Made by a program: the position numbers and the translations under genes. The notes beneath the pieces were generated by a model, which saw only the letters and a program-made list of their open reading frames with translations, ran no database searches and was not told the DNA's origin. This document shows, one piece after another, positions 396 to 34,579 of a DNA stretch of 40,230 bases (within the stretch, counting starts at the first letter, position 1; the number at the start of each line of letters is the position of its first letter). The stretch lies in sequence record DRR378314_2561; one strand, given 5' to 3'.

Positions 396-1250
396 TCAAT
401 TTCCACCAAAACCTGGAAGAACCAATAAAGGAACACTGGTTTGAGTCCCTACTTTTTTTACTATAGGTTCTCGGGTTAACCTCTCAAAAAAACCATGTGA
501 ATGTTTGGTCAGGACAACCAAATCCACTTTCAACCCTTCAATAAATTTCAAAATGGCATCCGCTACATTGGATGACATGGGAACATCGTGGGGCGTTACT
601 GGGAATTTCTTGAACCTTTCCATTAAAACTTCCTTATTGTTTTCTTGCTGTTTCGATAATTTGAATTCCTGCGCCACATAGAACATATGAATCTCCGATT
701 TCCATACTTCCATCAACTCTAGCAAAGAAAACAACATGTTTTTGGGTACAAAATGCATATAATCAGTAGGAAAGGCCAAGGATTTAAGCCTTTGGAAATT
801 AAAAGAACCAGGGACTAACAGCATTGTGCAATTGTCGATTCCGCGTATAACCTTCAGGGTGTTGCTTCCAAAAAGAAACTTATTTGATCCAGTGACTCCA
901 TGGGTCCCCATAACAATATTGTCTATATCCAGTTTTGGGATCAGCGTTTGGATGCTTTCCACCAATCCACCAGAAATGGACAATGTCTCAAAAACATGGT
1001 CTTTGTTCTTGTGGTTTTTCAGCAAATACTCTTTGATTTTATCTAGTTCACCTTTCGATTCAGCAGCCATTGAACCATAAATGTTTCCTGCCCTGGAAGT
1101 GCTCTTAAAGCCTGACACATTCTGTAATTTCGGTTCATAAGTGTGCAAAAGGTAAAATCTACATGCTAATGGCCCATACAGTTTGATGGCCGTAAAAATG
1201 GCATTCCATGCGTTTTGGGAGAAATCGGTGGGCAAAAGGATATTCTTCAT
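396..1250 (-). CDS. Universal stress protein (tandem USP domains)
   Basis: MKNILLPTDFS N-terminus, IVMGTHG..GSNT ATP-binding motif, C-terminal PLLVLP. Start moved from 1331 to ATG 1250, 7 nt after the stop of the upstream paralogue. Confidence 0.93.
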   Translation of the reverse strand: MKNILLPTDFSQNAWNAIFTAIKLYGPLACRFYLLHTYEPKLQNVSGFKSTSRAGNIYGSMAAESKGELDKIKEYLLKNHKNKDHVFETLSISGGLVESIQTLIPKLDIDNIVMGTHGVTGSNKFLFGSNTLKVIRGIDNCTMLLVPGSFNFQRLKSLAFPTDYMHFVPKNMLFSLLELMEVWKSEIHMFYVAQEFKLSKQQENNKEVLMERFKKFPVTPHDVPMSSNVADAILKFIEGLKVDLVVLTKHSHGFFERLTREPIVKKVGTQTSVPLLVLPGFGGN

Positions 1251-1257
1251 TCTGTTT

Positions 1258-2115
1258 TTATTTTGAAATCTCGGAAGTATCGGGCAGTACCAAAAAAGGT
1301 GTTTGGCAATGATATCCAACAGCATCCACATTCTGCTTCATCATAAGTCGTTCTAAAAAGGTGTGTTTTCTGTTCATCATCGCCACCAGTCCAATGTGGT
1401 TCCTTTCAATATAATCATGCACAATATTGGGCATATATTCATCCGTATTATCCGTAAAAACCACGTTCGGAATACCTTTAAGCATTTTTTTGAGATGTTC
1501 CTTGTTTTCAGATTGTGCCTTGTTAAGGTCATGGCCTTCCAAAGCATGTAGTACATGGAGGTCGACCCCAAATTTTTTGATCATATCCATGAGAGGTTTC
1601 AGCTCATTGGATTTATATTTTGACCAATAATCCGTAGGCAACAACACTTTTTTGATGTTCCTGAAACCGTAGCCGTTGGGAACCGCCAAAACGGGCACAG
1701 CTGCTTTTCTGATAACATGTACGGTATTGGAACCCAGAAAAAATTCCTTTGCACCGGTCGCACCTTGGGTTCCCATCACCACCATATCAATTTTTCTATC
1801 TTGGCAAACCTCATTGACCTCGTCGGGCAGTGTGTTGAAGGCTGACAGGATTTCCAAGGTATGCCTTGGATTGTGGTGATCGTTTTTAATCCGATCTAAT
1901 GTATTTTCCAATCCATTCAAGGAAATATCGACCCCAATGTCTGGAATGGCACTGGCCATGGGACCACCCACCATGTAATCAATTCTATAAAAAGCCGGTG
2001 TGTAAGCGTTCAATAGATAAAATGTACATTTCTCCTCCTTAAAAAGTTCCAGAGCGTAAAGGATTGCGTTCCATGCATTCTTGGAAAAATCGGTGGGCAG
2101 CAGTATTTTTTTCAT
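1258..2115 (-). CDS. Universal stress protein (tandem USP domains)
   Basis: MKKILLPTDFS, VVMGTQGATG..GSNT, PVLAVP, PFLVLP. Confidence 0.95.
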   Translation of the reverse strand: MKKILLPTDFSKNAWNAILYALELFKEEKCTFYLLNAYTPAFYRIDYMVGGPMASAIPDIGVDISLNGLENTLDRIKNDHHNPRHTLEILSAFNTLPDEVNEVCQDRKIDMVVMGTQGATGAKEFFLGSNTVHVIRKAAVPVLAVPNGYGFRNIKKVLLPTDYWSKYKSNELKPLMDMIKKFGVDLHVLHALEGHDLNKAQSENKEHLKKMLKGIPNVVFTDNTDEYMPNIVHDYIERNHIGLVAMMNRKHTFLERLMMKQNVDAVGYHCQTPFLVLPDTSEISK

Positions 2116-2173
2116 AATCTTTTACTTTTAAAGGAATTGGATGCTTCCTTTGCAAACAGTTCTTTGTTCCATT

Positions 2174-2217
2174 CAATATTAAGGTATGCCGGGCTTTTTT
2201 ACCATGACCTGAATCAT
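2174..2217 (-). promoter_or_regulatory. Regulon box + -7 element for usp-usp
   Basis: ATGACCTGAATCAT 2204-2217; 22-nt spacer; TAATATTG on minus strand 2174-2181. Confidence 0.75.
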
Positions 2218-2257
2218 TTCACAAAGTTCCCCTGATAACCTGATTACGGAACTTTTG

Positions 2258-2301
2258 CTGATCTTGCTCATATTCCAGATCGGTATTTTGTTTGTAATTT
2301 G
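2258..2301 (+). promoter_or_regulatory. Regulon box + -7 element for ABC exporter operon
   Basis: CTGATCTTGCTCAT 2258-2271 (weakest box); 22 nt; GTAATTTG 2294-2301. Confidence 0.6.
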
Positions 2302-2324
2302 AACATTATCCCATGCCAAGTACC

Positions 2325-3410
2325 ATGAAATACTTTTTGCTGTTTTCTATCTTGTCGTCCCTCCTATTCGCATGCACCGATCCCAAGGAAAAAATATATC
2401 CGGAGAAACTGCCGATGACCGAATCCGTATATGCTTCCGCCACGGTTCAACCCGATAGCCTTTATCAAGTTTACTCGGTGGCCATGGGCATTTTGGACAA
2501 GATTTGGGTGGAAGAAGGCGATAAGGTGGCCAAGGGCGATCGTATTCTACAGATTATTAACACCTCACCTGAGCTAAACAAAGAAAATGCTAAACTGGCA
2601 TTGCAACTGGCCCAAGAGAACTATTCTGGTACTTCGGGAATTCTGAACAGCATAGCGGACGAAATCCAAGCTGCCAAGCTCCAACAGAAAAATGATTCCA
2701 TCAATTATTTCCGTCAAAAAAAACTCTGGGACCAAAACATTGGTTCAAAATTGGAATACGACAACAAAGAATTGGCCTATGAACTTTCCCAAAATCATCT
2801 GGGATTGCTCAAAAAGAAATATGAACAGACAGAAAATGAGCTCGAAACCCATCTGAGGCAAGCTGAAAACAATTATAAAACCTCGCTCACAACGTCGAAT
2901 GATTTCACCATAACCAGTAAAATAGACGGCAAGGTATATGCCCTATACAAAAATCCCGGCGAAATTGTGAATACATTGGAACCTGTGGCGGTAGTGGGAA
3001 GAAGCGATAAATTTGTTGTGGAGTTATTGGTAGATGAGGTGGACATTGTTAAACTCAGCATTGGGCAAAAAGTGTTCATTACACTTGATTCCTACGGTCC
3101 CAAAGTTTTTGAAGGGACCTTGGACAAAATCTATCCCAGAAAAGATGAGCGTTCCCAAACGTTCAAAGTAGAAGCCTTGTTCAATAAGCCTCCAAAAACC
3201 TTGTATCCCGGCCTATCAGGAGAAGGCAATATCATCATTGCCGAAAAAAAGGAAACCCTGACCATCCCCAAGACATATCTGGTCGATGAATCAACAGTAA
3301 TCACGGACGAGGGAGAAACTAAGGTTACCACTGGCCTGCAGAACATGGTATTGGTAGAGATTTTGGACGGCATCAACGAAAACACGGCAATATACAAACC
3401 AGAACCATGA
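2325..3410 (+). CDS. Periplasmic adaptor (HlyD/MacA-type membrane fusion lipoprotein)
   Basis: Lipobox LLFAC, lipoyl-like VEEGDKVAKGD, coiled-coil hairpin, IxSKIDGKV. Start 2325 or 2313. Confidence 0.88.
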   Translation: MKYFLLFSILSSLLFACTDPKEKIYPEKLPMTESVYASATVQPDSLYQVYSVAMGILDKIWVEEGDKVAKGDRILQIINTSPELNKENAKLALQLAQENYSGTSGILNSIADEIQAAKLQQKNDSINYFRQKKLWDQNIGSKLEYDNKELAYELSQNHLGLLKKKYEQTENELETHLRQAENNYKTSLTTSNDFTITSKIDGKVYALYKNPGEIVNTLEPVAVVGRSDKFVVELLVDEVDIVKLSIGQKVFITLDSYGPKVFEGTLDKIYPRKDERSQTFKVEALFNKPPKTLYPGLSGEGNIIIAEKKETLTIPKTYLVDESTVITDEGETKVTTGLQNMVLVEILDGINENTAIYKPEP

Positions 3411-4669
3411 TCAATTGGAATGTAATATTGGACATTGCCAAGACCCATCTTCTCACCAAGATGAAATCCACCGTTACTGCTACGCTAGGGGTTACTTTTG
3501 GGATTGGGGCCTATATTACACTGGTCAGTTTCATGACAGGGCTAAACACCATGCTGGATGATCTGGTGTTGAACCAAACTCCCCACATCCACATCTATAA
3601 TGAGATCCGTCCCTCTCCTGAACAACCCATTGCCCTTTATGATGATTTCAAGAACGCATTCAACGTGGTGCACTCCATAAAACCAAAACAAAGCCAGAAA
3701 AAGATACACAATGCGCTCCCCATTCTAAATTATCTGAAAAAACAGCCAAACGTGGATGGAGCCACACCGCAACTCAGGGCACAGATCTTTTATCTATCAG
3801 GTTCCATGGAGCTGGGCGGTAATCTGATTGGGGTGGATATCATGGAGGAAGTCCGTTTGTCCAACCTACGGGACAATATTGTGCAAGGTTCCCCTGAAAC
3901 CTTGAAGAACAATGATAATGGCATTCTCTTGGGGGCAGGATTGGCCGATAAAATGTCCTTGTCCGTTGGAGACAGGGTACAGATAAGTACGGTATCCGGT
4001 AGTATTTTTCCTTTGAAGATAGTGGGCATCTATCAAAGTGGCATTGCAGAAATTGACAATGTACAAAGCTTTGTCAATCTCAAGACCGTCCAGCGCATTT
4101 TAGGGGAAGCAGAGAATTATGTCACGGATATCAATATCAAATTGTTGGACATAACCGAGGCACAATCGATGGCAGAACAATTGGAAAAACAGTTCAATGT
4201 CAAGGCTATGGGAATCAACGAGGCCAATGCTCAGTTTGAAACGGGATCGAACATCAGGAACCTTATTACCTATGCAGTTTCCATTACGCTGCTTATTGTT
4301 GCCGGCTTTGGCATTTATAACATATTGAACATGCTGATCTATGAAAAAATGAAAGACATTGCCATACTCAAAGCAACTGGTTTTTCAGGAACGGATGTAC
4401 AGCTCATCTTTATGAGTCAGGCCATAATCATAGGATTGGTCGGTGGTTTTTTGGGGCTAATGGTCGGATTTGTACTTTCAAAAATAATTGACCAGACTCC
4501 TTTTGAAACTGAGGCGTTGCCCACCATCACCACGTACCCTGTAAACTATGACCCGACCTATTATATCATTGGGATCACTTTTGCCCTTTTATCAACCTTT
4601 GTTGCAGGCTATTTGCCTTCCAATAGGGCCAAAAATATCGATCCTGTAAAAATCATCAGAGGAACTTAA
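3407..4669 (+). CDS. ABC transporter permease (MacB/LolE/FtsX family)
   Basis: N-terminal TM, large periplasmic domain, EKMKDIAILKATG motif, three C-terminal TMs, RAKNIDPV; ATGA overlap with upstream gene. Confidence 0.9.
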   Translation: MINWNVILDIAKTHLLTKMKSTVTATLGVTFGIGAYITLVSFMTGLNTMLDDLVLNQTPHIHIYNEIRPSPEQPIALYDDFKNAFNVVHSIKPKQSQKKIHNALPILNYLKKQPNVDGATPQLRAQIFYLSGSMELGGNLIGVDIMEEVRLSNLRDNIVQGSPETLKNNDNGILLGAGLADKMSLSVGDRVQISTVSGSIFPLKIVGIYQSGIAEIDNVQSFVNLKTVQRILGEAENYVTDINIKLLDITEAQSMAEQLEKQFNVKAMGINEANAQFETGSNIRNLITYAVSITLLIVAGFGIYNILNMLIYEKMKDIAILKATGFSGTDVQLIFMSQAIIIGLVGGFLGLMVGFVLSKIIDQTPFETEALPTITTYPVNYDPTYYIIGITFALLSTFVAGYLPSNRAKNIDPVKIIRGT

Positions 4670-4677
4670 TCTAGCCT

Positions 4678-5355
4678 ATGAACCTTGTCCTTGAAACCAA
4701 AAATATCAACAAGCACTTCCATAAACCCAAGGATTTTCATGTTCTGAAAGATGTTTCCTTTAGGGTCAAAAAAGGGGAGTTTGTTTCCATTATGGGCAAA
4801 TCTGGATCTGGAAAATCCACTTTGTTGTATGTTCTTTCCACTATGGATACCGATTATAGCGGGGAATTGTATTTGGGCAAAGAATTGATTACTGGGAAAA
4901 CCCAACGTGAACTCTCCCGAATCCGTAATAAAAATATCGGTTTTGTGTTCCAATTCCACTATTTATTGTCCGAATTCAGTGTTCTGGAAAATGTGATGTT
5001 ACCCGCAAAAAAACTTGGCGAAAAATCCCCCGCCGAGATTGAACGCGATGCCCTGCATAAACTTGAAATGCTCCATATAGGTCATTTGGCCCACCAGCGG
5101 GCCTCTCGGATTTCTGGAGGGGAAAAGCAGCGCGTGGCCATTGCCCGAGCGTTGATCAACAACCCTACGATCTTGATGGGCGATGAACCCACTGGAAACT
5201 TGGACAGCCAAAACTCTGAAAACGTATTCAATATCTTCAAAAAACTCAAGGAGGAACAAGGACTTTCGCTCTTGGTGGTAACCCATGATGAGGATTTTGC
5301 CAAAAGAACCGATCGCATTATTCAATTGGAAGACGGAAGAATTGTGGCTCAATAA
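4678..5355 (+). CDS. ABC transporter ATP-binding protein (LolD/MacB-like)
   Basis: GKSGSGKST, IGFVFQFHYLL, ISGGEKQRVAIARAL, GDEPTGNLD, VVTHD. Confidence 0.95.
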   Translation: MNLVLETKNINKHFHKPKDFHVLKDVSFRVKKGEFVSIMGKSGSGKSTLLYVLSTMDTDYSGELYLGKELITGKTQRELSRIRNKNIGFVFQFHYLLSEFSVLENVMLPAKKLGEKSPAEIERDALHKLEMLHIGHLAHQRASRISGGEKQRVAIARALINNPTILMGDEPTGNLDSQNSENVFNIFKKLKEEQGLSLLVVTHDEDFAKRTDRIIQLEDGRIVAQ

Positions 5356-6200
5356 AATATGGACTTGTTTAAACTGAGCAAGGGAAGTTGGGTCTTGGAC
5401 ATCATCTGCTTTACAAAATCCTTGTGGACAAAGGAGGACGCAGTACTTTTTCTGTTCCGCTCCAACATGACCAATACATCCATTTCCCCACGTTCGGCAT
5501 ACTGCGTCAGGGCATCAGAAACATTGTCGGAATGAATCAGTTCAAACCCCAATTTTTCATACTTGACCTTTTGGAGCAGTATTTTTTGGAACCACTGCAT
5601 CTGTTCCTCACCTTTTTCCCAATCCAAGGTGTTTACATGAACTATTTTAACAAAAGCTTGATATGGACGTGCCATGCTTTTAACGAGCCAATCAATGGCA
5701 TGTATATCCGTTTCTTCAAAATCGGAAGCATAAGTTATACGCGCTATTGAAAATTTATCCGCAGTTGGTGGCACCATCAAGAAAGGACAGGGACTTTTTT
5801 TAATCATTCCCATGGTGTTGCTGCCTATTATCATATCCTTGAGTGCACTTCTGCCTTTTGTGCCCATAATGATCATTGAAGCGTCAAACTCGGTAACAGC
5901 GTCAATGATGGCATCGTTTATTATGGCATTTTCCTTTACTATTAACCGGAGCTTTGTGCTGTTTTTAAGTTGTCCCAGACGCTCTTTATAGAAATCGACC
6001 AATTTTTTGCGATTTTCTTCGAATGCTTCTTTTTCCATCTTGGCGTATGTTATGCTCAAAGGGGTCAGCAGCGCCACATTCAGATCAAACACATGGAGCA
6101 CCAACAACCTTGATTCGAGTTTTTTGCTCAGGGCATTGGCCATTTTTAGGGCCGCTTCGGAATTTTTGGAGCAATCTGTGGCGCAGAGTATGGTTCTCAT
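5349..6200 (-). CDS. Universal stress protein (tandem USP domains)
   Basis: MRTILCATDCS, IIMGTKGRS..IGSNT, CPFLMVP. Confidence 0.92.
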   Translation of the reverse strand: MRTILCATDCSKNSEAALKMANALSKKLESRLLVLHVFDLNVALLTPLSITYAKMEKEAFEENRKKLVDFYKERLGQLKNSTKLRLIVKENAIINDAIIDAVTEFDASMIIMGTKGRSALKDMIIGSNTMGMIKKSPCPFLMVPPTADKFSIARITYASDFEETDIHAIDWLVKSMARPYQAFVKIVHVNTLDWEKGEEQMQWFQKILLQKVKYEKLGFELIHSDNVSDALTQYAERGEMDVLVMLERNRKSTASSFVHKDFVKQMMSKTQLPLLSLNKSIFY

Positions 6201-6331: not shown

Positions 6332-6375
6332 ATGATCCACATCATTTCACTTCGAGGGTATTGTTTTTAATTTAG
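6332..6375 (+). promoter_or_regulatory. Regulon box + -7 element for hsp20
   Basis: ATGATCCACATCAT 6332-6345; 22 nt; TAATTTAG 6368-6375. Confidence 0.82.
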
Positions 6376-6425
6376 TTCCACTTAGTTGTAAAATGATTTT
6401 ATTTAACCTAAAAAACAATTGCGTT

Positions 6426-6890
6426 ATGTCATTAGTAAAATTTAGAAACAGACCTTTTGGGAACCTCATCGGTTCCGATTTTTTCGATTTTGACGATTTT
6501 TTTGAAGATCGTGTATGGGACACCAATCTGTTGAAGGACAGTTTTTGGAACGGAAAAACCACGATTCCGGCCATGAACATCAAAGAAACCGATGATGACT
6601 ATGAAATTGAGTTAGCCGCACCGGGCTTTAACAAGAAAGATTTTAAAATCACCATTGAAAATGGATGTTTGAACATTTCTGCTGAAAAATCGACCTCAGA
6701 GGAAGAGAAAAAGGCGAATTACACCCGAAGGGAGTTCAGCCACAATTCCTTTGAACGTTCCCTTCAATTGCCAGACTTCATCAAAGATGATAACGTCAAC
6801 GCAAAATACAATGATGGTATACTGCGGTTTAAACTGGTAAAAAAAGAAGAGGCCAAAAAAAAGAAACCCAAGGTGATCCAAGTCTCATGA
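6426..6890 (+). CDS. Hsp20/alpha-crystallin small heat shock protein
   Basis: PAMNIKETDDDYEIELAAPG, RREFSHNSFERS, AKYNDGIL. Start at MSLVKF (6426) preferred over 6393. Confidence 0.95.
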   Translation: MSLVKFRNRPFGNLIGSDFFDFDDFFEDRVWDTNLLKDSFWNGKTTIPAMNIKETDDDYEIELAAPGFNKKDFKITIENGCLNISAEKSTSEEEKKANYTRREFSHNSFERSLQLPDFIKDDNVNAKYNDGILRFKLVKKEEAKKKKPKVIQVS

Positions 6891-6908
6891 ATTGAACTTT
6901 TAGCCCAG

Positions 6909-6964
6909 TCCCCATTACAGTTTCCGCAATCTTTTTCATGGAATTCCTGTGATGGGGATTTTTT
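6909..6964 (+). terminator. Probable intrinsic terminator/attenuator after hsp20
   Basis: TCCCCATTACAG (6909-6920) pairs with CTGTGATGGGGA (6947-6958), followed by T6; large loop. Confidence 0.55.
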
Positions 6965-7009
6965 GTTCCTTTTTTACCAAAAAACACATAAACTTACCTT
7001 ACAAATACC

Positions 7010-14633: not shown

Positions 14634-14634
14634 A

Positions 14635-24798: not shown

Positions 24799-24802
24799 CA
24801 CC

Positions 24803-25369: not shown

Positions 25370-25771
25370 ATGGAATATTATTTCAATACCGTTCTCAGTG
25401 ACATCACTTTTGAAAAAGCTATACAAAAAACCACCCAAGCCCTTAAAAATGAAGGTTTCGGGGTTCTTACCGAAATTGACATCAGGAATACATTGAAGCA
25501 GAAATTGGATGTACACTTTCCCAATTATACAATTTTGGGAGCATGTAACCCCTCATTTGCCCATAAAGCATTACAGGTAGAAAACAAGATTGGCACCATG
25601 CTTCCTTGTAATGTAATCGTAAGTGAAGCCGAAGATGGTAACATAGAGGTGGCCGCCGTAAATCCCATTGCTTCGATGATGGGAGTCCACAATGAGGCCT
25701 TGATGGGCATTGCCGAGGAGGTCCGGGACAAACTCAAAAGAGTGATAGAGGCCCTTCAAGAAAGTCATTGA
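25370..25771 (+). CDS. DUF302 domain protein
   Basis: LKNEGFGVLTEIDI, YTILGACNPSFA, IGTMLPCNVIV; ATG 25370. Confidence 0.9.
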   Translation: MEYYFNTVLSDITFEKAIQKTTQALKNEGFGVLTEIDIRNTLKQKLDVHFPNYTILGACNPSFAHKALQVENKIGTMLPCNVIVSEAEDGNIEVAAVNPIASMMGVHNEALMGIAEEVRDKLKRVIEALQESH

Positions 25772-26783: not shown

Positions 26784-27457
26784 GGTTTCTGGATTTGTTC
26801 ACTAATGTTGGAGATTTGGAAATCACTGTCGCTGGTCTTTATCAGTATCAGATTGGGCGAAATGAAGGATGCCGTCAAATTTGGTGTCTGATATCTCCTT
26901 TTAATCATGGAGATATTTTCTCTTTTACTGATGGGCCAAATAATTTCACCTTGGGTATTCAGAATAACTTCGGTAAAGGCATATTCATAAATATTCAGCT
27001 GAAAGTTATTTTTCCCCCTGAAAGTTCTCCTGCAATAGATCCCTATGGCCCTGTCATCTTCAAAACCTGTAACATTCAGATACTCTGGTTCGATTACAAT
27101 TCTTCCTTGGGTGTCCATAAACCCGTAATATGGAATTCCCTCATCCTTTATTTCTTGGATGGCACATAGACCGTTCTTAAATTTCGGGTACCTGATGCCC
27201 TTGATATCGCTATGGGACTCATCCGCATTTTGGTTCCAGACCACATCATCCCTAAAATCTATGACCAGATTGCCCTCTTGGTCTATAAAGCCCCATTTAA
27301 CGCCTTTCCGGACGGCTGCCAACCCTTCGCTGAAAGGGCCCACTTCGTCAAGCTCCTTTATTTTGACCGTTGGATCATTTATTGTCTCCAGGGTTTGTGC
27401 ACCCATTACAAATGGGAAGGCCATAAAAGCCATTCCCACTAAATATTTCAGTCCCAT
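26780..27457 (-). CDS. WG-repeat secreted protein
   Basis: Signal peptide; FSEGLAAVRKGVKWGFID, YGFMDTQGRIVIEPEY. Confidence 0.85.
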   Translation of the reverse strand: MGLKYLVGMAFMAFPFVMGAQTLETINDPTVKIKELDEVGPFSEGLAAVRKGVKWGFIDQEGNLVIDFRDDVVWNQNADESHSDIKGIRYPKFKNGLCAIQEIKDEGIPYYGFMDTQGRIVIEPEYLNVTGFEDDRAIGIYCRRTFRGKNNFQLNIYEYAFTEVILNTQGEIIWPISKRENISMIKRRYQTPNLTASFISPNLILIKTSDSDFQISNISEQIQKP

Positions 27458-27478
27458 AATTCATTTTTTTATATTGAT

Positions 27479-27522
27479 TCAAGGTAGGTCAAATGCCGTT
27501 CTGTAAAAATGATTTAAATCAG
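27479..27522 (-). promoter_or_regulatory. Regulon box + -7 element for WG-SDR
   Basis: ATGATTTAAATCAG 27509-27522; 22 nt; TACCTTGA on minus strand 27479-27486. Confidence 0.72.
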
Positions 27523-27568
27523 TGGAACAGCTATTTGCCATGGATATCATAGCGTCTTTCAGATTCTC

Positions 27569-28021
27569 TTAGAACATCAAATTGGAATATATCATACTTT
27601 TGAGGTCTTTGGGAAGTTCGTTCCGGATATCTTCCATCTCGCCCAAGGACACATATCTTCTCAAAAATAAAAATGTGACATCGATATAGGTTTCCGCAAG
27701 ATCGTTCTCCTCACCATAATCGTGGATGGCAGAGCGACCGTCAAAACGCTTCACCAGTTCTATAAACTCATCCATGTGCTTAATGTCCGGTTTCTTTTCC
27801 CTTGGGTTCCATCCATTTACGTAGGCCCCTTTAAGAAACATGGGCAGTTGCGCAATAAGTTGCAACGATTCTTCTACAGATATGAGCTCCCGTAGGGCAT
27901 GCATGATCGAAACAAATATCCTGCCCGCTTTTTCGGTGTCTTTTCCCATACCCAATTGTTTGGCATATTCGTTCAAGAAGGTATTGCCTTCCTGTGCATA
28001 TTGATTAAAATTCAGTGCCAT
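27569..28021 (-). CDS. DUF2267 family protein (copy 1)
   Basis: MHALRELISVEESLQLIAQLPMFLKGAYVNGW, YVSLGEMEDIRNELP; start 28021 or 28033. Confidence 0.85.
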   Translation of the reverse strand: MALNFNQYAQEGNTFLNEYAKQLGMGKDTEKAGRIFVSIMHALRELISVEESLQLIAQLPMFLKGAYVNGWNPREKKPDIKHMDEFIELVKRFDGRSAIHDYGEENDLAETYIDVTFLFLRRYVSLGEMEDIRNELPKDLKSMIYSNLMF

Positions 28022-28047
28022 GATCTTTTGCATTTAAAAATTATAGT

Positions 28048-28091
28048 TAAAAATGGTGTATAAAACGATTTCTTGAAATGACCCCCGTCAA
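28048..28091 (-). promoter_or_regulatory. Regulon box + -7 element
   Basis: ATGACCCCCGTCAA 28078-28091; 22 nt; CATTTTTA on minus strand 28048-28055. Confidence 0.65.
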
Positions 28092-28108: not shown

Positions 28109-28152
28109 ATGACCCAAATCATTTCCATGTGAAGGAAATAGAGGTTTCTTTG
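28109..28152 (+). promoter_or_regulatory. Regulon box + -7 element for the baeRF-like gene
   Basis: ATGACCCAAATCAT 28109-28122; 22 nt; TTTCTTTG 28145-28152. Confidence 0.78.
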
Positions 28153-28176
28153 AATTCCTATAAATTTAAATTGACC

Positions 28177-29322
28177 ATGAAAAAAGAAGATATAGAACTG
28201 TTGGCAGGAGAACATGCAGCTCCCTGTGTCTCCATTTATATGCCAACCCATAGAACAGGCGAAGCCGTTCTGAAGGGCCATGATAGACTTCTGCTCAAAA
28301 ACCTTTTGAAAGATGTGAAACGTAATCTGGCCAATCAGGAATATGACAAAAAAACAATTAGTGCCCTTGCCGCCCCTATACAAGAATTGATCGATGCCAA
28401 ACACGATTGGAACTTCAGGTCCGAAGGTCTTGTCCTTTTTATTTCCCCAGATCTTTTCATGACATTCCAACTTCCTTTAAAGTTTTCCCCTCAGACCAGT
28501 ATTTCCTCAGTATTTTACCTGGTTCCCCTAATGCCCTTTTTTGTGGATGGCGAAAACTTTATCCTCTTGACTTTGGAACTCAACGAAGTGAAGCTTTATA
28601 AGGTCGGTCGGTACAGCATTAAGGAGATTTATATTGAGGAAAAAATCCCTTCCCGGATGGAAGATCAAGTAGGTTATGACCATGAACAGAAAAATTTGCA
28701 ATTCAGAAGCCAACAGCAAGCTTATGGAGAAGCCATGTTCCATGGCCAAGGTGAGGGGAAAGAAGATAGAAAAGATGAAATCCTGACTTTTTTTAGAGGT
28801 ATTGACCGTGGATTGTCCTCCATTTTAAGTGCAGAAAATACTCCTTTGCTCCTCGCAGGGCTGGACGAGCAGATTTCAATCTATAAAAAGGCCAATTCCT
28901 ATCACAACCTCTTTGAAAAACATCTTTCATGCCATCCATCTGACCTAAGTTCGGATGAACTGCAAATAGGGGCTTGGAAGCTTTTGGAATCCCATTTTGA
29001 CCAAGAACGAAACGAAAAATTGGAGATGTTCCAGCGTTACCAAGACACGGGGAGAACCTCACAACAGATCAATGAAATTATCCCAATGGCCATTCAGGGC
29101 AGAGTGGACACGCTTTTTATCCAATATGATATGGATGTATGGGGAACCTACGACCCAACAAACAACCTTTTAAAAATAAGTCACGAACACCGGTCTCCTG
29201 CCGTACCCTTGGATAATTTGATGGTGGTAAATACTTTTCTACAGGGAGGTAAGATATACTTAATGGACAAGATGGAAATGCCCGTTCCAAGCTCGGAGTG
29301 CTGTGCCATTTTCCGTAAATGA
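28177..29322 (+). CDS. Bacterial archaeo-eukaryotic release factor-like protein (baeRF3/7-type; Balon-like)
   Basis: CVSIYMPTHRTG, GLVLF, FHGQG..FFRGIDRGL, PLLLAG, GRVDTLF, AIFR end; no GGQ; ATG 28177 lies downstream of the promoter. Confidence 0.75.
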   Translation: MKKEDIELLAGEHAAPCVSIYMPTHRTGEAVLKGHDRLLLKNLLKDVKRNLANQEYDKKTISALAAPIQELIDAKHDWNFRSEGLVLFISPDLFMTFQLPLKFSPQTSISSVFYLVPLMPFFVDGENFILLTLELNEVKLYKVGRYSIKEIYIEEKIPSRMEDQVGYDHEQKNLQFRSQQQAYGEAMFHGQGEGKEDRKDEILTFFRGIDRGLSSILSAENTPLLLAGLDEQISIYKKANSYHNLFEKHLSCHPSDLSSDELQIGAWKLLESHFDQERNEKLEMFQRYQDTGRTSQQINEIIPMAIQGRVDTLFIQYDMDVWGTYDPTNNLLKISHEHRSPAVPLDNLMVVNTFLQGGKIYLMDKMEMPVPSSECCAIFRK

Positions 29323-29465: not shown

Positions 29466-29672
29466 TCAGTGAAATATGTGTTTGATTTTTCGGTAAAGTT
29501 TAGCAAATAAAATCATGGGCAATTCACTTTTCAACATTGAAAGTCCAAGATTTTGTTGGCCCAAGGTCAGATTGAGTTTCATTTTTTCCACCTCAATTTG
29601 TCTTTTGAGCTTTAGAATTTTTAATCTTTGGTCTATATCCGAAAAAGAATGGTACCTGGCCTTCATTTTCAA
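29466..29672 (-). CDS. Small hypothetical protein (DUF6327-like)
   Basis: YHSFSDIDQRLKILKLKRQIE; overlaps upstream stop. Confidence 0.65.
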   Translation of the reverse strand: MKMKARYHSFSDIDQRLKILKLKRQIEVEKMKLNLTLGQQNLGLSMLKSELPMILFAKLYRKIKHIFH

Positions 29673-30010
29673 TCAAAATAGTATATGGAAAATCTTTTGA
29701 TCAAAGGACTGCTCAATTTATCCCTCAAAAGGGCATATAATCCAATGAGAAGCACATAGAACAACCCTACAACCACAAATCCAAGGACCATACTGTCAAA
29801 AACAACTCCCAAACCATAGGAAACGGCTATGGAAAAAAGCAACAAGGCCAAAAACAACAAAGCCGATACGATGAACCACCCCAGAATATGGTCCATGAGA
29901 CGCATCAATATCTTAAAGACCTTCAGTTCGTAGTACTCCCGTGTTTGCTCTACATAGGCATGTATGCTCTCATCTGTATCCCTCAAATTTTCCTTTAAGT
30001 CCTGAAACAT
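29669..30010 (-). CDS. Two-TM membrane protein (holin-like/YqjE-like)
   Basis: AYVEQTREYYELK followed by two hydrophobic helices. Confidence 0.75.
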   Translation of the reverse strand: MFQDLKENLRDTDESIHAYVEQTREYYELKVFKILMRLMDHILGWFIVSALLFLALLLFSIAVSYGLGVVFDSMVLGFVVVGLFYVLLIGLYALLRDKLSSPLIKRFSIYYFD

Positions 30011-30018
30011 ATCAAAAT

Positions 30019-30348
30019 CTACTTTTGTAACCGTTCATTTTTCTTTTTGAGCTCTTCCAATTTATACTCCAATGAATCTATGATATCCTCGGCCTTATAG
30101 CTCATATTGGATATCACATCTTCAAGTTTGTCTTCAATTTTCTTTCTCCTTTCATGCACACTTTGGGAGAGTTCGTCCACTGCATGGGAAGCCTTCTCGG
30201 ATATGTCATGGGTAACATCCTGGGCTTTGCGCTTAATTTTCTCCCTGGTTTCTTTTCCTTTATCCGGAGCAAAAAGTATCCCAATTCCCGCTCCAACAAT
30301 GGTCCCTGCCAATAGGGCCAAGACTATATCTCCGTTTCTGGTTGCCAT
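30019..30348 (-). CDS. YtxH domain protein
   Basis: LLAGTIVGAGIGILFAPDKGKETREKI + charged coiled coil. Confidence 0.9.
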   Translation of the reverse strand: MATRNGDIVLALLAGTIVGAGIGILFAPDKGKETREKIKRKAQDVTHDISEKASHAVDELSQSVHERRKKIEDKLEDVISNMSYKAEDIIDSLEYKLEELKKKNERLQK

Positions 30349-30374
30349 ATGATCAATTTTTATCGTTTATATTG

Positions 30375-30418
30375 TAAAAGTAGCCCAACAACCTATCATT
30401 TCTGATGATATAGATCAG
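30375..30418 (-). promoter_or_regulatory. Regulon box + -7 element for ytxH operon
   Basis: ATGATATAGATCAG 30405-30418; 22 nt; TACTTTTA on minus strand 30375-30382. Confidence 0.8.
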
Positions 30419-30524: not shown

Positions 30525-30568
30525 GTGACGACAATCATTTCACCAAAAATGTAAACCATGCAATTTTG
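30525..30568 (+). promoter_or_regulatory. Regulon box + -7 element
   Basis: GTGACGACAATCAT 30525-30538; 22 nt; CAATTTTG 30561-30568. Confidence 0.72.
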
Positions 30569-30609
30569 AACGAACAACCCTGACCCAATGCGGGGTAAAA
30601 ACTAAAGCC

Positions 30610-31281
30610 ATGAAAATGAATAATCGATATTTACTGTTTATTATGCTTTTCGCCCTTTGGAATTGTAAACAAAAAGTGGAGAAAGCAACACCGGAACCTG
30701 TCCCCCAAACAGTCAAAAAACAAGAAACACCAACGCCAGAACTAAAAACGATAGCACAGTTCATGGGCATGGCATCGGACTCTTTGGGCATACCAACTGA
30801 GCTGCAAAGTTGGACCATCGATAAAAATGGCAAATTGGACAGTATTGGAGTACAAAAGGCCTCACTTCTCTTCAAAAAGTTACTCACGTCGAGCAAGAGT
30901 AATCTTTATCCCATATTTGAGGCCAGAGATGGGAAAGAGGCCTTGATCGTTATGGCCAATCAGGGTTATGACGGAAATATCCGAGGGACGTTCTTGGTCG
31001 ATAAGAACACAATGGAAATCAAGAAAGCTGCCTTTGAGCATGTGGCCGAATCCGAAGGGTATGGTGCCGCTATCGCATTTTCATCATTTGAAGAACAATT
31101 TGTCGGAACCAAGGTCAATTGGGGTGAAAACACGTTTGGATTGAACCAAAACAATACAACCATAATAAAAGGGGACAAAGTGGTCGATGGCATTTCAGGT
31201 GCTACCATAACCAGTAGGCTTACGGTGGAAATGGTCAATGATGGCCTAAAAAAATACAAGCCCTTTTTCATAACAAATTAG
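30610..31281 (+). CDS. FMN-binding lipoprotein (NqrC/RnfG-like FMN_bind domain)
   Basis: Lipobox LWNC; GYDGNIRG, EHVAESEGYGA, VDGISGATITS flavinylation motif. Confidence 0.82.
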   Translation: MKMNNRYLLFIMLFALWNCKQKVEKATPEPVPQTVKKQETPTPELKTIAQFMGMASDSLGIPTELQSWTIDKNGKLDSIGVQKASLLFKKLLTSSKSNLYPIFEARDGKEALIVMANQGYDGNIRGTFLVDKNTMEIKKAAFEHVAESEGYGAAIAFSSFEEQFVGTKVNWGENTFGLNQNNTTIIKGDKVVDGISGATITSRLTVEMVNDGLKKYKPFFITN

Positions 31282-31300: not shown

Positions 31301-31344
31301 ATGACTCAGATCATTGTGTGATGCAAGCTGTGCAGGTAATTTTA
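31301..31344 (+). promoter_or_regulatory. Regulon box + -7 element
   Basis: ATGACTCAGATCAT 31301-31314; 22 nt; TAATTTTA 31337-31344. Confidence 0.82.
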
Positions 31345-31374
31345 CGTTCAAAACATTAACACTAATTTGACAAA

Positions 31375-31917
31375 ATGAAAATCCTTATTGTATATGGCAC
31401 AAGTGAGGGTCAGACCCGAAAAATTGCCAGGTTCATGGAAGAAGTGCTTCAAGGAGGCGATCACAAAGTGGTCATTGCAGATGCCACCGAAGAGCCTCCT
31501 TCTCCTGATGGTTTTGAGGCTGTTCTGATCGGTGCCTCGGTGCACATGCAAAAATATCAAAGTGCCGTATCCAATTATGTCATGCGCCATCTGGACATCC
31601 TCAATAAAAAGCATTCCGCATTCTTCTCGGTTTCAATGGCCATTGCATCCAACATAGAAGAAGAGCATGAAGAAATCAAAAAAATGACTTTGGATTTCTT
31701 GGAAAGAACAGGATGGAACCCAGATGAAGTACAATATTTTGCAGGAGCTTTAAAATATACCCAATACGATTATTTTAAAAAGCTCATCATGCGAATGATT
31801 GCAAAAAAAGAGGGAGGCAGCACAGATACTTGCCGTGACCATGAATATACGGATTGGAACAATGTGAAAACATTTGTCCTCAACTTTTGTACAGAAAGAG
31901 TACAATCAGCAAGGTAA
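31375..31917 (+). CDS. Flavodoxin-domain protein, HemG-like (menaquinone-dependent protoporphyrinogen oxidase family)
   Basis: ILIVYGTSEGQTRKIA, VLIGASVH, AFFSVSM, FAGALKYTQY, EYTDW. Confidence 0.85.
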   Translation: MKILIVYGTSEGQTRKIARFMEEVLQGGDHKVVIADATEEPPSPDGFEAVLIGASVHMQKYQSAVSNYVMRHLDILNKKHSAFFSVSMAIASNIEEEHEEIKKMTLDFLERTGWNPDEVQYFAGALKYTQYDYFKKLIMRMIAKKEGGSTDTCRDHEYTDWNNVKTFVLNFCTERVQSAR

Positions 31918-31962
31918 GTTCAAGAACGTTATTTTTTATCAATTCATTTTAAAACTAATGTC

Positions 31963-32418
31963 ATGGGATTCAATTTTGACCAATACACCGCAGAAGGAAA
32001 CACCTTTTTGAATGATTATGCCAAACAGATGTCCATGGAAAACGATAGGGAAAGAGCGGGCAGGATTATGACTTCAATACTTTATGCTTTGAGGGATATC
32101 ATCTCCCCCACTGAATCCATGCAGTTTATTGCCCAACTGCCCATGATTATAAAGGCCATTTACGTGAATGGATGGGCCATAGGCAAAAAAAGGACAAGGG
32201 TCAAAAATTTGAAAGATTTTATCCAGCTCGCCAAAAAACATGATGGCACTGCCGCTACCAATGACTTTGGATACGATGATGATGCGGCGGAAGACTATAT
32301 CCAAACAACTTTTCTGTTCTTAAAAAACTATGTGTCCCAGGGCGAACTGGAGGATATCAGGGATGTATTGCCGAAAGGCTTAAAAAATATCATCCCATCG
32401 CATATAATCAATGAATAA
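31963..32418 (+). CDS. DUF2267 family protein (copy 2)
   Basis: Clear paralogue of 27569-28021 (NFDQYTAEGNTFLNDYAKQ, AQLPMIIKAIYVNGW). Confidence 0.85.
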   Translation: MGFNFDQYTAEGNTFLNDYAKQMSMENDRERAGRIMTSILYALRDIISPTESMQFIAQLPMIIKAIYVNGWAIGKKRTRVKNLKDFIQLAKKHDGTAATNDFGYDDDAAEDYIQTTFLFLKNYVSQGELEDIRDVLPKGLKNIIPSHIINE

Positions 32419-32543
32419 ACAATATGGGCTTCCGTTCACCATCGAAAAATTTGGCCTTTTCTTATTTGTAAGCTTATAGGATTGCATTGTACCAAAATGT
32501 TGTTTTTGGATAGACCATAGGTTTTGTCCGTGGCCAAGTGTAA

Positions 32544-32587
32544 ATGATCAATATCATTTCCTATTTTGCCAAAGTAATCTAGTTTTG
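32544..32587 (+). promoter_or_regulatory. Regulon box + -7 element for ftsH
   Basis: ATGATCAATATCAT 32544-32557; 22 nt; perfect TAGTTTTG 32580-32587. Confidence 0.85.
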
Positions 32588-32620
32588 GTGCATTCCCCAG
32601 TATATTTTTAGAACAGATAG

Positions 32621-34579
32621 ATGCGCCCTAAAAACAATGGTACAGAAGAAGATGGTAAAGGTAAAAAAACCATCAACACCCCAAAACCTCCCAAAAGGGA
32701 ATACAACTTTAGCTGGGTCAATTGGTTATTGGTGGTTTTTCTGTTGTTCTTGACCGTTTTCTTCAACCGTTCTGGTGGTCCCAAAGAAATCAGTTGGTCA
32801 GAAATGGAGGATACCTTGCTCCCCACGAACGCCATCGAAAGGATTGTTGTCGTAAATAAAGAGATTGCGGAAATTTATCTAAAAAAAGACCTCTCGCAAG
32901 AATCCGAATTAAAGGAAGTCACAGATGGTCAGTTCTCTACCGATAAAGGTCCGCACTATTTCATAACCATTGGCTCGGTGGAAAGTTTTGAGAACAAATT
33001 GAAACAAAAACAACAAAGCCTTCCATCAGTAGAAAAAATTGACATACGGTATGAAAACCGGACCAATTGGATTACCGTGTTTTCATGGTTATTGCCCTTA
33101 GGTATCATCATATTGTTCTGGATGTTTATACTCCGAAGGATGGGGGATGGAAAAAGTGGCAATCCGTTGTCCAACTTTGGAAAATCTACGGCCAAACTCA
33201 CAGAAAAAGGAACTAAGAGTACTGTTACCTTCAATGATATTGCCGGACTTAAAGAAGCTAAGATCGAAATCATGGAGGTTGTTGACTTTCTCAAAAACCC
33301 AGAAGAGTACACCAGTTTGGGGGCCAAGATCCCTAAAGGTGTCTTGCTTGTGGGACCTCCTGGTACGGGAAAGACCCTTATGGCCAAAGCGATGGCCGGG
33401 GAGGCGCAAGTACCTTTTTTTTCCATATCTGGGTCGGAATTCGTGGAAATGTTCGTCGGTGTGGGTGCATCCAGAGTACGGGATCTTTTCAAGCGTGCCA
33501 AAGAAAAGGCCCCAAGTATCATTTTTGTAGATGAAATTGATGCCGTAGGACGTTCCAGAGGCAAGATCAACGCTTTTCAGACCAATGATGAACGCGAAAA
33601 TACCTTGAACCAGCTTCTTACGGAATTGGACGGATTCGGCGAAAATACAGGGGTAATCGTGTTGGCTGCTACTAACCGCCCCGATGTGCTCGACAAGGCC
33701 CTATTGCGTCCCGGTAGATTTGACCGTCACATTTATCTGGAACTTCCAGACCTATCCGAACGTATCGAAATCTTCGGAGTACACTTGCGTCCCTTAAAAC
33801 TCTCCAAAGATGTGGATGTGGAACTCTTGGCCAAACTCAGTCCCGGGTTTTCTGGAGCCGATATTGCCAATATTTGCAATGAAGCGGCCCTGATCGCCGC
33901 ACGAAAGAAAAAAAAGGCTGTTGAACAAGAAGACTTTATCGCTGCACGCGACCGAGTCATTGGAGGTATGGAGCGTAAGAACAAGATAATTTCTCAAAAG
34001 GAAAAGGAAATTGTGGCATATCATGAAGCTGGCCATGCCGTGGCAAGCTGGTATTTGGAACACGTGGACTCCCTCGTAAAGGTATCCATCATTCCAAGAG
34101 GCAAATCATTAGGTGCGGCATGGTACCTGCCCGAAGAACGGCAGATCGTGACCAAGTCACAGTTTCTGGACCAAATTTGCGCATCGCTCGGTGGCCGTGT
34201 CGCGGAAGAAATCGTTTTTGGGGAAGCTTCCTCCGGCGCGCTGGACGATTTGGAAAAAGTGACCAAACAAGCATATACTATGGTTGCTTATTACGGCTTG
34301 GACAAGGAAGTTGGGCCTATCAGTTACTACGATTCCACTGGGCAAAACGAACAAATATTGGGCAAGCCCTATAGCGAAGAGATGGCCAAATTAATCGACA
34401 CGGAAGTAAGGGATTTGGTAATCACATCCTACGAGCGGACCAAAAATCTTTTGTTGAAACATCGAGAGGAATTGGAAAAACTTGCCCAATTACTTTTAAG
34501 ACAAGAAGTAGCGGAAAAAACCGACCTCGAAAAACTCTTGGGAAAGAGAGGTGAAAAAATATTGGCTGATAGTATTTAA
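32621..34579 (+). CDS. ftsH: ATP-dependent zinc metalloprotease FtsH
   Basis: Two TMs, [50 protein letters not shown]. Confidence 0.96.

Follow-up and report, generated by a model that had tools for sequence, protein, structure and literature searches.

A Crp/Fnr-box stress-survival island in a marine flavobacterium, probably driven by a receiver-Crp two-component regulator

We analyzed a 40,230-nt stretch of DNA from record DRR378314_2561 (the window; all coordinates are window positions), within which the segment 396–34579 (the island) carries about thirty genes over 34 kb. The closest loci come from Muricauda, Flagellimonas, and Allomuricauda, all marine Flavobacteriaceae, and the host is by this measure a marine flavobacterium of the Muricauda/Flagellimonas type. 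The genes and promoters described below make it probable that the island is a single co-regulated locus for stress survival and ribosome hibernation. The 39 long open reading frames (ORFs) were annotated with Pfam, and 31 of these also with NCBIfam. The effector families listed in a first-pass annotation, which had been made from the sequence alone, were all recovered. Three universal stress proteins (USPs) are of the tandem type and ~285–310 amino acids in length (PF00582, E 3e-20 to 2e-28). They are accompanied by an Hsp20 (PF00011, E 2e-23) and by an 883-amino acid type II P-type ATPase, which has Cation_ATPase_N/C domains and for which the best NCBIfam models are Ca-ATPase types. The gene for an α/β hydrolase overlaps that of a phosphoribosyltransferase (PRTase), and the gene for an S-adenosylmethionine (SAM) methyltransferase overlaps that of an archease (PF01951, 48 bits against a cut-off of 25). 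An aeRF1-like protein matches baeRF_family7 (151.8 bits against a cut-off of 27.2), and a class II ribonucleotide reductase (RNR) is present as a remnant, the N- and C-terminal pieces of which were matched by tblastn to the intact RNR of congeners.

The span holds further genes that were absent from the earlier list: PpsA, FtsH, two DUF2267 proteins, YtxH, DUF302, FMN_bind, a flavodoxin-like protein, MlaEFD, and a MacB-type efflux operon. Seven ORFs belong to no family in Pfam or NCBIfam, and a weak-threshold Pfam scan of the unknown ORFs and of three remnant fragments gave no credible match. An Rfam scan of the whole window gave no match at gathering scores, and there is thus no B12 riboswitch beside the RNR remnant. 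A mobile element was considered and rejected, as the G+C content is even (0.39–0.47) and there is no integrase or transposase among the 39 ORFs scanned with Pfam. Six congeners retain both the island and its boxes.

A blind search for intergenic enrichment returned one strong dyad, ATGA-N6-TCAT, of which 11 of 12 exact sites are intergenic in a window with 12.7% intergenic DNA. There are 18 strand matches to the box ATGAYNNNNATCAT, at 12 distinct sites of which 11 are intergenic; 100 shuffles gave 0.39 on average and never more than 4. In its full form the box is 14 bp in length, ATGAYNNNNRTCAT, and constitutes a TGAY-N4-RTCA palindrome. The island contains 12 exact and 6 weaker boxes, every one of which has the TGA-N6-TCA core. 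When the sites are aligned in the direction of the flanking genes, the sequence TAnnTTTG (at least 5 of 6 positions matched; background rate 0.9% per position) is found exactly 22 nt past the box in 14 of 30 site-orientations, and at none of the other offsets from 14 to 30. This sequence is the −7 element of σA promoters in Flavobacterium psychrophilum, located at −12 to −5 according to the available text of PMC9723704. The fixed 22-nt gap and the placement of the −7 element therefore put the box at −48 to −35, with its center at about −41.5. The textbook position of a class II Crp/Fnr activator is −41.5, and by analogy we infer that the box is a binding site of this class.

The composite of box and −7 element, with two mismatches allowed over both, has 17 matches, whereas 30 Markov simulations gave 0.27 on average and at most 2. 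At a slightly different threshold there are 18 composites, 17 of which are upstream of a gene and oriented towards it. The units bearing composites are USP2-USP1, Hsp20 (with the ATPase), the kinase-regulator operon, MlaEFD, h128, h126, h75-h180-(RNR), hydrolase-PRTase, methyltransferase-archease, h169, PpsA, h89-DUF302, the aeRF1-like (Balon-type) gene, YtxH-h113, FMN_bind, flavodoxin-like-DUF2267, and FtsH. With ~17 units behind one composite promoter where 0.27 are expected, their co-location goes beyond chance, and judged by their promoters the island genes form a real regulon. No composite occurs to the right of 34.6 kb in the window, nor in the 20 kb to the left of the island in the nearest genome, G001, which sets the limits of the island.

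The composite promoter also strongly supports the earlier proposal that the island is wired to a Crp-type regulator. One such regulator is encoded within the island. It consists of a receiver domain (REC, PF00072), a cyclic nucleotide-binding-type domain (PF00027, E 1.5e-18), and a Crp-type helix-turn-helix (HTH) domain (PF13545, HTH_Crp_2, E 2e-12), the last two above cut-off and in the order that is characteristic of the Crp/Fnr family. Its C-terminal half also matches the FixK model (E 5e-17, below cut-off), and its recognition helix reads KETAIRTL. The protein has no cysteines and thus no ligands for an FNR-type [4Fe-4S] cluster; on our reading of the sequence, the arginine of the Crp cyclic-nucleotide pocket is missing as well. 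Control by phosphorylation is therefore the simplest model for its activation. The first-pass annotation had called this regulator unrelated to DosR of Mycobacterium tuberculosis, which is apt for its output domain (Crp-type rather than NarL-type) and less so for its architecture, as it is still a two-component response regulator paired with a GAF-bearing kinase.

Relatives of this regulator are spread among Bacteroidota. Full-length receiver-Crp proteins (at least 330 of 359 residues covered) occur in 59 of 401 sampled genomes of this phylum, including 16 of 29 genomes of the same family, and most of the remaining carriers belong to the same class. The 20 kb around 40 receiver-Crp genes, chosen as one per genus where possible, were searched by tblastn with the proteins of the window and compared with 40 control stretches located 100 kb away, from 27 of those genomes. 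USP genes are found at 16 of the 40 regulator loci (38 genes) and at none of the control loci. Hsp20 (7 loci), YtxH (4), PRTase (3), DUF2267 (3), and Balon (1) are likewise seen at regulator loci and at no control locus. TGAY-N4-RTCA sites number 207 at regulator loci and 67 at control loci, as compared with 5 and 6, respectively, for a control palindrome.

At 36 of the 40 loci, an H-box kinase gene lies directly upstream of the regulator gene on the same strand. An N-terminal PAS domain like that of the kinase at locus L036 is present in 36 of 37 adjacent kinase ORFs (E < 1e-10), and the L036 domain itself matches the heme domain of FixL (1dp6, E 1.4e-12; 8js5, E 5e-13) and an EcDOS-type ‘Heme pas sensor protein’ (E 6e-8). 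In its ancestral form, the pair would therefore seem to consist of an oxygen sensor of the FixL type feeding a FixJ/FixK hybrid contained in one polypeptide. Such a fusion of receiver and Crp/Fnr modules would collapse the FixJ-to-FixK step of the FixL-FixJ-FixK cascade. The box shares with the FNR/FixK box the TGA-N6-TCA core and the likely −41.5 position, and targets in G001 include fixNOQP/fixGHI-type genes, hemN, and nos. There are differences in detail. The recognition helix of FNR is E-x-x-S-R. In the island regulator it is E-x-x-I-R, and the box has A/C-TGAY in place of TTGAT.

The kinase of the island departs from this family pattern in having a LOV domain in place of the FixL-like PAS. 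The consensus LOV motif is GXNCRFLQ, and the kinase has GKNCNFLQ, including the adduct-forming cysteine. Residues 149–272 match the NCBIfam YtvA family (E 2e-42, below the whole-protein cut-off), and LOV domains in the PDB are matched at E 1e-42 to 1e-21 (4gcz, E 1e-42; 2pr5, E 1e-31), with flavin binding being a prediction only. A single GAF domain (PF13185, E 1.5e-8) is located between PAS and LOV domains. As the kinase has LOV and no FixL-like PAS, its direct input may be light or redox state. The LOV motif is kept in 4 of 6 congener kinases and in 4 of 37 other partner kinases. The kinases at loci L024 and L025, which are 69% identical to that of the window, fail the LOV regular expression, through either a variant motif or loss of the cysteine.

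LOV proteins act upstream of general stress responses in several bacteria, as exemplified by Caulobacter LovK, Brucella LOV-HK, and Bacillus YtvA. The island could by the same token belong to a general stress response that is gated by light and dark or by flavin redox state, with the LOV kinase reporting blue light, rather than to a hypoxia response. The matches of the LOV domain to YtvA, YF1, and blue-light-activated kinases (E 1e-42 to 6e-24), the persistence of the motif in congeners, and the missing FixL-like PAS are all in keeping with this idea. We nevertheless consider it rather unlikely, since the FixL-like PAS prevails among the partner kinases of the regulator family, the shared box precedes typical low-oxygen genes, and the GAF and two other PAS domains of the kinase could carry other signals. 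Light or redox sensing is also compatible with an oxygen-limitation response, as an added input.

The low-oxygen genes behind the box were identified in G001. This genome carries the island with the same boxes, and 11 of its 33 distinct exact sites lie within the ~30-kb island; composites number 71, as compared with 8 for a reversed-pattern control. Outside the island, composites or exact boxes precede genes for an FNR-like regulator, a FixI-like ATPase, and ccoNO-ccoP-fixG-fixH; hemN (TIGR00538, above cut-off) followed by a USP gene; a CBS protein; a USP-transporter-PEPCK-PFK operon; HPF (a perfect match); cydAB; PPDK; OmpW; a USP pair; and a cytochrome c-fasciclin-nosZ operon. The FNR-like gene, cbb3, hemN, USPs, PEPCK-PFK, and HPF form a respiratory cluster (C21:63.5–88.5 kb; L109, L110). 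The available text of PMC9723704 reports that cbb3 and heme-synthesis genes rise under oxygen limitation in F. psychrophilum. The position of the box in front of cbb3, bd, hemN, and nos genes links it to oxygen limitation, and points to hypoxia as the putative signal for the island.

A second, smaller island in G001 (C18:144.8–152.9 kb; L068) encodes a FixL-like PAS kinase and a receiver-Crp paralogue, the latter with 37–38% identity to the regulator of the window, and has six composites. Its other genes encode five tandem USPs, Hsp20, a 2-hydroxyacid dehydrogenase, and DnaJ. It is in this second island that the FixL-like pair of the organism resides.

The FNR-like protein of G001, P0124, has an N-terminal CxxC and two more cysteines, and its best NCBIfam match is Fnr (E 1.6e-32, below cut-off). 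A helix of the form E-x-x-I-R is common to the island regulator, P0124 (ESAIR), and the second receiver-Crp, and each of the three could therefore read the TGAY-N4-RTCA core. P0124 might accordingly sense oxygen and activate all of the boxes as in a classical FNR regulon, with the kinase and receiver-Crp protein being a target or a minor modulator. Its four cysteines, its family match, and its helix fit this role, and the same design of box, 22-nt gap, and −7 element precedes cbb3, hemN, and cydAB. We judge such a regulon unlikely for several reasons. The boxes of the island form a subclass of their own: A occupies position 1 in 13 of the 17 island boxes, whereas C does so in 7 of the 9 boxes of the respiratory cluster, and the G+C content of the spacer is 0.53 versus 0.08. 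Receiver-Crp loci are flanked by USP arrays and enriched in TGAY-N4-RTCA sites, in a comparison that did not extend to FNR-like loci. The kinase-regulator operon has a box of its own, as is typical of an autoregulated master regulator. Lastly, P0124 falls below the cut-off of the Fnr model, and its cluster ligands are only putative. Boxes of the second island have a mixed position 1 and a spacer G+C content of 0.29. The subclasses hint at a division of labor between the regulators, with a possible code to separate them.

The reading we favor, and consider likely, is of a regulon with class II Crp/Fnr boxes that lets the cell survive oxygen limitation and growth arrest, under the control of the receiver-Crp two-component regulator. 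A Crp/Fnr-type dimer bound at the box would recruit RNA polymerase in place of the −33 contact. Of the candidate activators, the receiver-Crp protein of the island itself is the most likely; it would be phosphorylated by the adjoining kinase. Once activated, it would switch on its own operon together with the genes for USPs, Hsp20, the cation ATPase, Balon, PRTase-hydrolase, methyltransferase-archease, PpsA, FtsH, and Mla, and in congeners also that for the class II RNR. The private kinase would add LOV (blue light or redox) and GAF inputs. We take the island to be the growth-arrest arm of the oxygen-limitation response because it shares the box core and helix with the FNR-like protein and with the FixL-like/receiver-Crp pair, which are found near cbb3, bd, hemN, nos, HPF, and USP genes.

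A number of observations weigh against this interpretation. The kinase lacks the FixL-like PAS, which gives only a weak alignment, to the LOV domain (E 2.5e-4), and the FNR-like protein and the paralogue, sharing the helix, could drive the island alone. The genome-wide statements come from G001, which shares 68% of 31-mers, rather than from the assembly of the window itself. The contrast of 16 to 0 loci with USP genes overstates independence because the genomes compared are kin. USP3 and the MacB efflux operon have no composite promoter, and the latter is probably outside the regulon, since box 2204, when read in the plus orientation, also has no −7 element at +22. Four boxes are weak (21154, 22229, 27509, and 28078). 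Congeners differ in island content, and the RNR gene of the island is defunct here. A search of G001 (100% complete) gave no RtcB, which is the known partner of archease. Lastly, no counterpart of a nitroreductase, Tgs1-type WS/DGAT acyltransferase, nitrate transport (NarK2/NarX), or ferredoxin was seen in the island.

The last of these families belong to the DosR dormancy regulon, to which the first-pass annotation had likened the gene content of the island. The DosR regulon is induced by hypoxia, NO, or CO, and mycobacteria need it to survive without replication under anoxia. At the family level the likeness held for tandem USPs, Hsp20 (α-crystallin), the type II P-type ATPase, and class II RNR (Pfam and NCBIfam), for the Balon-type factor and Rv2629 (by fold), and for PRTase-hydrolase (by fusions), with the qualification that the RNR is only a remnant here. 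Parallels of the archease to Rv2630 and of the methyltransferase to Rv2003c are presumed. Both gene sets also include a two-component system with a GAF-bearing cytoplasmic kinase, and in G001 the genes for HPF, a CBS protein, and PFK follow the same box. Resemblance does not extend to the output of the regulator, which is of NarL/LuxR type in DosR whereas it is a Crp-type winged HTH in the island, and the DNA motif is TGAY-N4-RTCA rather than the Dev box. The DosR kinases DosS and DosT have tandem GAF domains, the first of which binds heme, whereas the island kinase has PAS-LOV-GAF-PAS. DosR genes are distributed over nine blocks, as compared with one 34-kb island here.

A likeness in organization is offered by the lxa locus of Burkholderia cenocepacia (Sass et al. 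2013). In the available text of PMC3721108, this locus comprises 50 genes, including those for six USPs, α-crystallin, class II RNR, a cation ATPase, a Zn protease, ABC transport, Anr-like CRP regulators, and two-component systems. A TGA-N6-TCA Fnr/Anr-like inverted repeat occurs there at 17 points between genes, and also at a few other places in the genome; low oxygen induces the locus up to 240-fold, and its deletion lowers anoxic survival. The island likewise has a contiguous cluster of USP, α-crystallin, RNR, ATPase, and Zn protease genes with many intergenic TGA-N6-TCA repeats. As far as that text goes, the two differ in phylum (Betaproteobacteria versus Bacteroidota) and in regulator, which is a stand-alone Anr-like protein in lxa and a receiver-Crp fusion paired with a kinase in the island. 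The island further has its boxes a fixed 22 nt from the Bacteroidota −7 element, as well as Balon, PRTase and hydrolase, methyltransferase-archease, PpsA, DUF2267, and YtxH, and it lacks the polyhydroxyalkanoate, acetate-kinase, and nitroreductase genes listed for lxa. The lxa locus has been characterized by expression and deletion, whereas the island is known from sequence alone. We infer that the island is functionally similar to both the lxa locus and the DosR regulon.

USPs, Hsp20, methyltransferases, and P-type ATPases are common families, and several DosR families are missing; common stress genes might thus have clustered without a shared purpose, making the resemblance to DosR accidental. 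This is very improbable given the number of units that share the composite and the conservation of the island among congeners. The same families recur near Balon genes elsewhere (USP at 5, type II P-type ATPase at 5, and HPF at 3 of 28 loci, a set with no control), and the published lxa locus overlaps in content according to the available text of PMC3721108, the authors of which themselves list the overlap with the DosR regulon. As lxa has already been published with this comparison, the idea of such an island rediscovers, for another phylum, a principle that was already in print.

We found no publication on a receiver-Crp/FixL-like kinase pair as regulator of a USP island in Bacteroidota, in a search limited to papers outside subscription. 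The same search returned nothing on the rigid arrangement of box, 22-nt gap, and −7 element, on Balon, PRTase-hydrolase, or archease in such an island, or on the replacement of a FixL-like domain by LOV. With the island, the DosR/lxa class of islands for low-oxygen survival would reach Bacteroidota, in which few regulons have been characterized. Owing to its unusually clean promoter design, the regulon is legible in the sequence, and a single reporter would suffice to test it. For the many USP arrays of flavobacteria, a likely regulator would be a receiver-Crp protein paired with a FixL-like kinase. In addition, Balon, PRTase-hydrolase, archease without RtcB, DUF2267, and YtxH would be placed in one co-regulated set, which may provide a tractable and non-pathogenic host for work on the corresponding unexplained members of dormancy regulons. 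The exchange of FixL-like for LOV sensor would be a natural experiment in the rewiring of a dormancy switch. More tentatively, and as a possibility that we do not favor, there may be an undescribed module, widespread in Bacteroidia, in which a FixL-like kinase phosphorylates a receiver-Crp hybrid that acts at rigid −41.5 promoters to induce a program of ribosome hibernation and proteostasis (Balon, HPF, USP, Hsp20, and FtsH), with a duplicate in the Muricauda lineage having swapped its oxygen-sensing PAS for LOV and GAF and gained a private box subclass with A at position 1 and a spacer rich in G+C. Dormancy in such a cell would be under two switches, one gated by oxygen and the other by light or redox state, both acting through the same promoter design.

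On the strength of profile and model comparisons, we consider the aeRF1-like protein a candidate Balon-type ribosome hibernation factor. Balon binds the ribosomal A site and inhibits translation. A profile of 25 homologues matches P. urativorans Balon over its full length (8rd8_B, E 8e-37). Its AlphaFold model (pLDDT 84) was compared with known structures by Foldseek, which returned P. urativorans Balon (E 4e-23, TM 0.68–0.72), Msmeg1130 (E 1.5e-17), and Rv2629 (chain 8v9k_z, E 4.7e-14, TM 0.62–0.65), with aRF1/eRF1 ranking below all Balon chains (TM at most 0.46). By sequence, the same 25-member profile did not reach Rv2629 or Msmeg1130 in the PDB at E ≤ 1, and the link to these two therefore appears only by fold. 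The candidate has no GGQ or NIKS string, and it scores 130.7 bits with the NCBIfam Balon model (AOC03_06830-family), below the curated cut-off of 330. No match to baeRF_family7 was found among the named control genomes searched, which did not include a mycobacterium. The available text of PMC10901736 (Helena-Bueno et al. 2024) describes Rv2629 as a ribosome-binding Balon homologue and places Balon genes in stress operons with Hsp20, RaiA, and RtcB. The candidate resembles Balon as described there in its aeRF1-like three-domain fold and in its stress neighborhood with Hsp20. No RaiA/HPF gene adjoins it; HPF is found elsewhere under the same box in G001.

The PRTase matches TT1426 (1wd5, E 1e-34), a protein with no known function. 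Over its full length, and at 36–46% identity, it also matches hundreds of ~425–470-amino acid fusions of PRTase and α/β hydrolase, which are mostly from Actinobacteria and include those of Mycolicibacterium hassiacum and a Mycobacterium species, and it matches fusions with erythromycin esterase as well. By sequence, the hydrolase and PRTase of the island are a split form of such a fusion. The architectures of Rv0571c and Rv2030c presumably correspond to the two forms of PRTase fusion. Rv0571c is listed as a putative PRTase (PMC5309233). In other phyla the fusion partner is an α/β hydrolase or an erythromycin-esterase-like domain (P0126, P0133, P0142, P0218, and P0242), with split and overlapping genes being seen here.

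The archease gene is translationally coupled, through a 4-nt overlap, to that of the class I SAM methyltransferase. A Pyrococcus archease is known to aid a tRNA methyltransferase, and the archease of the island may serve the adjoining methyltransferase. In a search limited to papers outside subscription, we found no publication that links archease with Rv2630/Rv2631, and none for the parallel of the methyltransferase with Rv2003c. A baeRF-PRTase-archease neighborhood is not borne out by the available text of PMC6514570 (Burroughs and Aravind), in which only an association with HPF is mentioned.

The two pieces of the RNR remnant are its last 52 residues (17289–17444, minus strand, 75% identity to a congener) and its first ~45 residues (17461–17595, minus strand, 40% identity), which are in different frames. 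In L024, L025, L026, and L027, an intact RNR of 579–588 amino acids (PF02867 and PF00317) is found between h126 and h180, and it is classed as adenosylcobalamin-dependent (TIGR02504, NrdJ_Z; 690 bits against a cut-off of 400). USP2 matches only 3loq, MJ0577, and PH0823 in the PDB, with no mycobacterial USP chain at E ≤ 0.001.

Table 1. Genes, boxes, and composite promoters of the island.
Feature	Position	Strand	Evidence and remarks
USP2 (1258–2115) and USP1 (396–1331), operon	396..2115	−	PF00582, E 1e-26 and 3e-20; composite promoter at 2204–2217
Crp/Fnr-type box ATGATTCAGGTCAT, 22 nt, then TAATATTG	2204..2217	−	predicted driver of USP2-USP1
HlyD-FtsX(MacB)-ABC efflux operon	2313..5355	+	Pfam; no composite promoter
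USP3, tandem-type	5349..6200	−	PF00582, E 2e-28; no composite promoter in its direction
Box ATGATCCACATCAT, 22 nt, then TAATTTAG	6332..6345	+	predicted driver of Hsp20, probably also of the P-type ATPase
Hsp20 (6393–6890); type II P-type cation ATPase (7010–9661)	6393..9661	+	PF00011; E1-E2_ATPase and Cation_ATPase_N/C; TIGR01522 E 8e-163, below cut-off
Box ATGATTTATGTCAT, 22 nt, then TATATTTG	9760..9773	+	predicted driver of the kinase-regulator operon (autoregulation)
Cytoplasmic histidine kinase, PAS-LOV-GAF-PAS-HisKA-HATPase	9949..12519	+	Pfam; NCBIfam YtvA family
Response regulator, REC, cNMP-binding-like, Crp-type HTH	12497..13576	+	PF00072, PF00027, PF13545; 23-nt overlap with the kinase gene
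MlaE-MlaF-MlaD lipid-transport operon	13644..16277	−	Pfam; box 16236–16249 and perfect −7 element TATTTTTG; conserved in congeners
Divergent pair h128 (16377–16763, −) and h126 (16885–17265, +)	16377..17265	both	no family
Class II (B12-dependent) RNR remnant	17289..17595	−	tblastn with the intact 588-amino acid gene of L026
h180 (17662–18204) and h75 (18231–18458)	17662..18458	−	no family; box 18537–18550
Box 18570–18583, then α/β hydrolase (18728–19393) and PRTase (19386–20006)	18570..20006	+	Pfam
SAM methyltransferase (20468–21106) and archease (20061–20471)	20061..21167	−	Pfam; weaker box TTGACCTGCATCAT at 21154–21167
h169 (21520–22029)	21520..22143	−	no Pfam or NCBIfam family; box 22130–22143 and perfect −7 element TAGTTTTG
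Weaker box CTGACCCAAATCAT (22229–22242), then PEP synthase PpsA (22291–24690)	22229..24690	+	NF005057, 1112 bits, above cut-off
Box 24755–24768, then h89 (25040–25309) and DUF302 (25340–25771)	24755..25771	+	Pfam
SDR (26022–26783), WG-repeat protein (26780–27457), DUF2267 (27569–28033)	26022..28091	−	weak boxes 27509–27522 and 28078–28091, each with a −7 match of 4/6
Box 28109–28122, then aeRF1-like gene (28129–29322), candidate Balon-type hibernation factor, likely start ATG 28177	28109..29322	+	baeRF_family7; NF052287 E 9e-38, below cut-off
YtxH (30019–30348) and membrane protein h113 (29669–30010)	29669..30418	−	Pfam; box 30405–30418
Box 30525–30538, then FMN_bind protein (30610–31281)	30525..31281	+	Pfam/NCBIfam
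Box 31301–31314, then flavodoxin-like/HemG-like protein (31375–31917) and DUF2267 (31963–32418)	31301..32418	+	Pfam/NCBIfam
Box 32544–32557 and perfect −7 element TAGTTTTG, then FtsH (32621–34579)	32544..34579	+	TIGR01241, 764 bits, above cut-off; right end of the island

Some features of the table call for comment. The box upstream of MlaE lies inside the called ORF, and the true start of MlaE is therefore downstream of the called TTG. Between h128 and h126 there is a perfect palindrome, ATGATCTGGATCAT (16821–16834), with a −7 element at +22 on either side. A single activator dimer bound there would drive both h128, a coiled-coil protein, and h126, a likely lipoprotein; h128-like ORFs are found near 3 of the 40 receiver-Crp loci. 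In congeners, h180 and h75 are co-oriented with the RNR gene and upstream of it, and both fall into Bacteroidota-only Atlas clusters with no family. USP3 is missing from some congeners. No box precedes the sulfatase and HEAT/cytochrome genes (34851–40172), which lie to the right of the island. Two mechanical ORFs, 28012–28470 (minus strand) and 25824–26192 (plus strand), have no family, overlap the Balon and SDR genes on the strand opposite to these, and are probably not genes.

The composite promoter of h169 is a perfect match. Its Atlas clusters are also confined to Bacteroidota and bear the automatic name ‘putative nicotinate-nucleotide adenylyltransferase’, which serves as a lead only. PncB2 is a member of the DosR regulon, and h169, if its name is true, would provide a similar link to NAD salvage.

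The neighborhoods of Balon homologues were surveyed at 28 metagenome loci with G+C contents of 0.31–0.71; of 31 non-self loci, L154, L159, and L167 were left unscanned, the window-like L119 was excluded, and there was no control set. Besides the USP, type II ATPase, and HPF genes mentioned above, MacB-type permeases (5 loci), trehalose enzymes (3), Hsp20 (2), and PpsA (2) were found near the Balon homologues. The MacB/FtsX permeases are at most 5–7 kb away, at L136, L152, L177, L180, and L193. At L180 (3217–4863, G+C 0.65), a WS/DGAT (Tgs-type) acyltransferase, a family of the DosR regulon, is encoded 3 kb from the Balon homologue. At L192 (6186–10063, G+C 0.52), genes for a REC-GerE (NarL/DosR-type) regulator, a single-domain USP, a Balon homologue, a cupin, and a hemerythrin are side by side, and this locus appears, judged by composition only, to have DosR-like wiring outside Actinobacteria and Bacteroidota.

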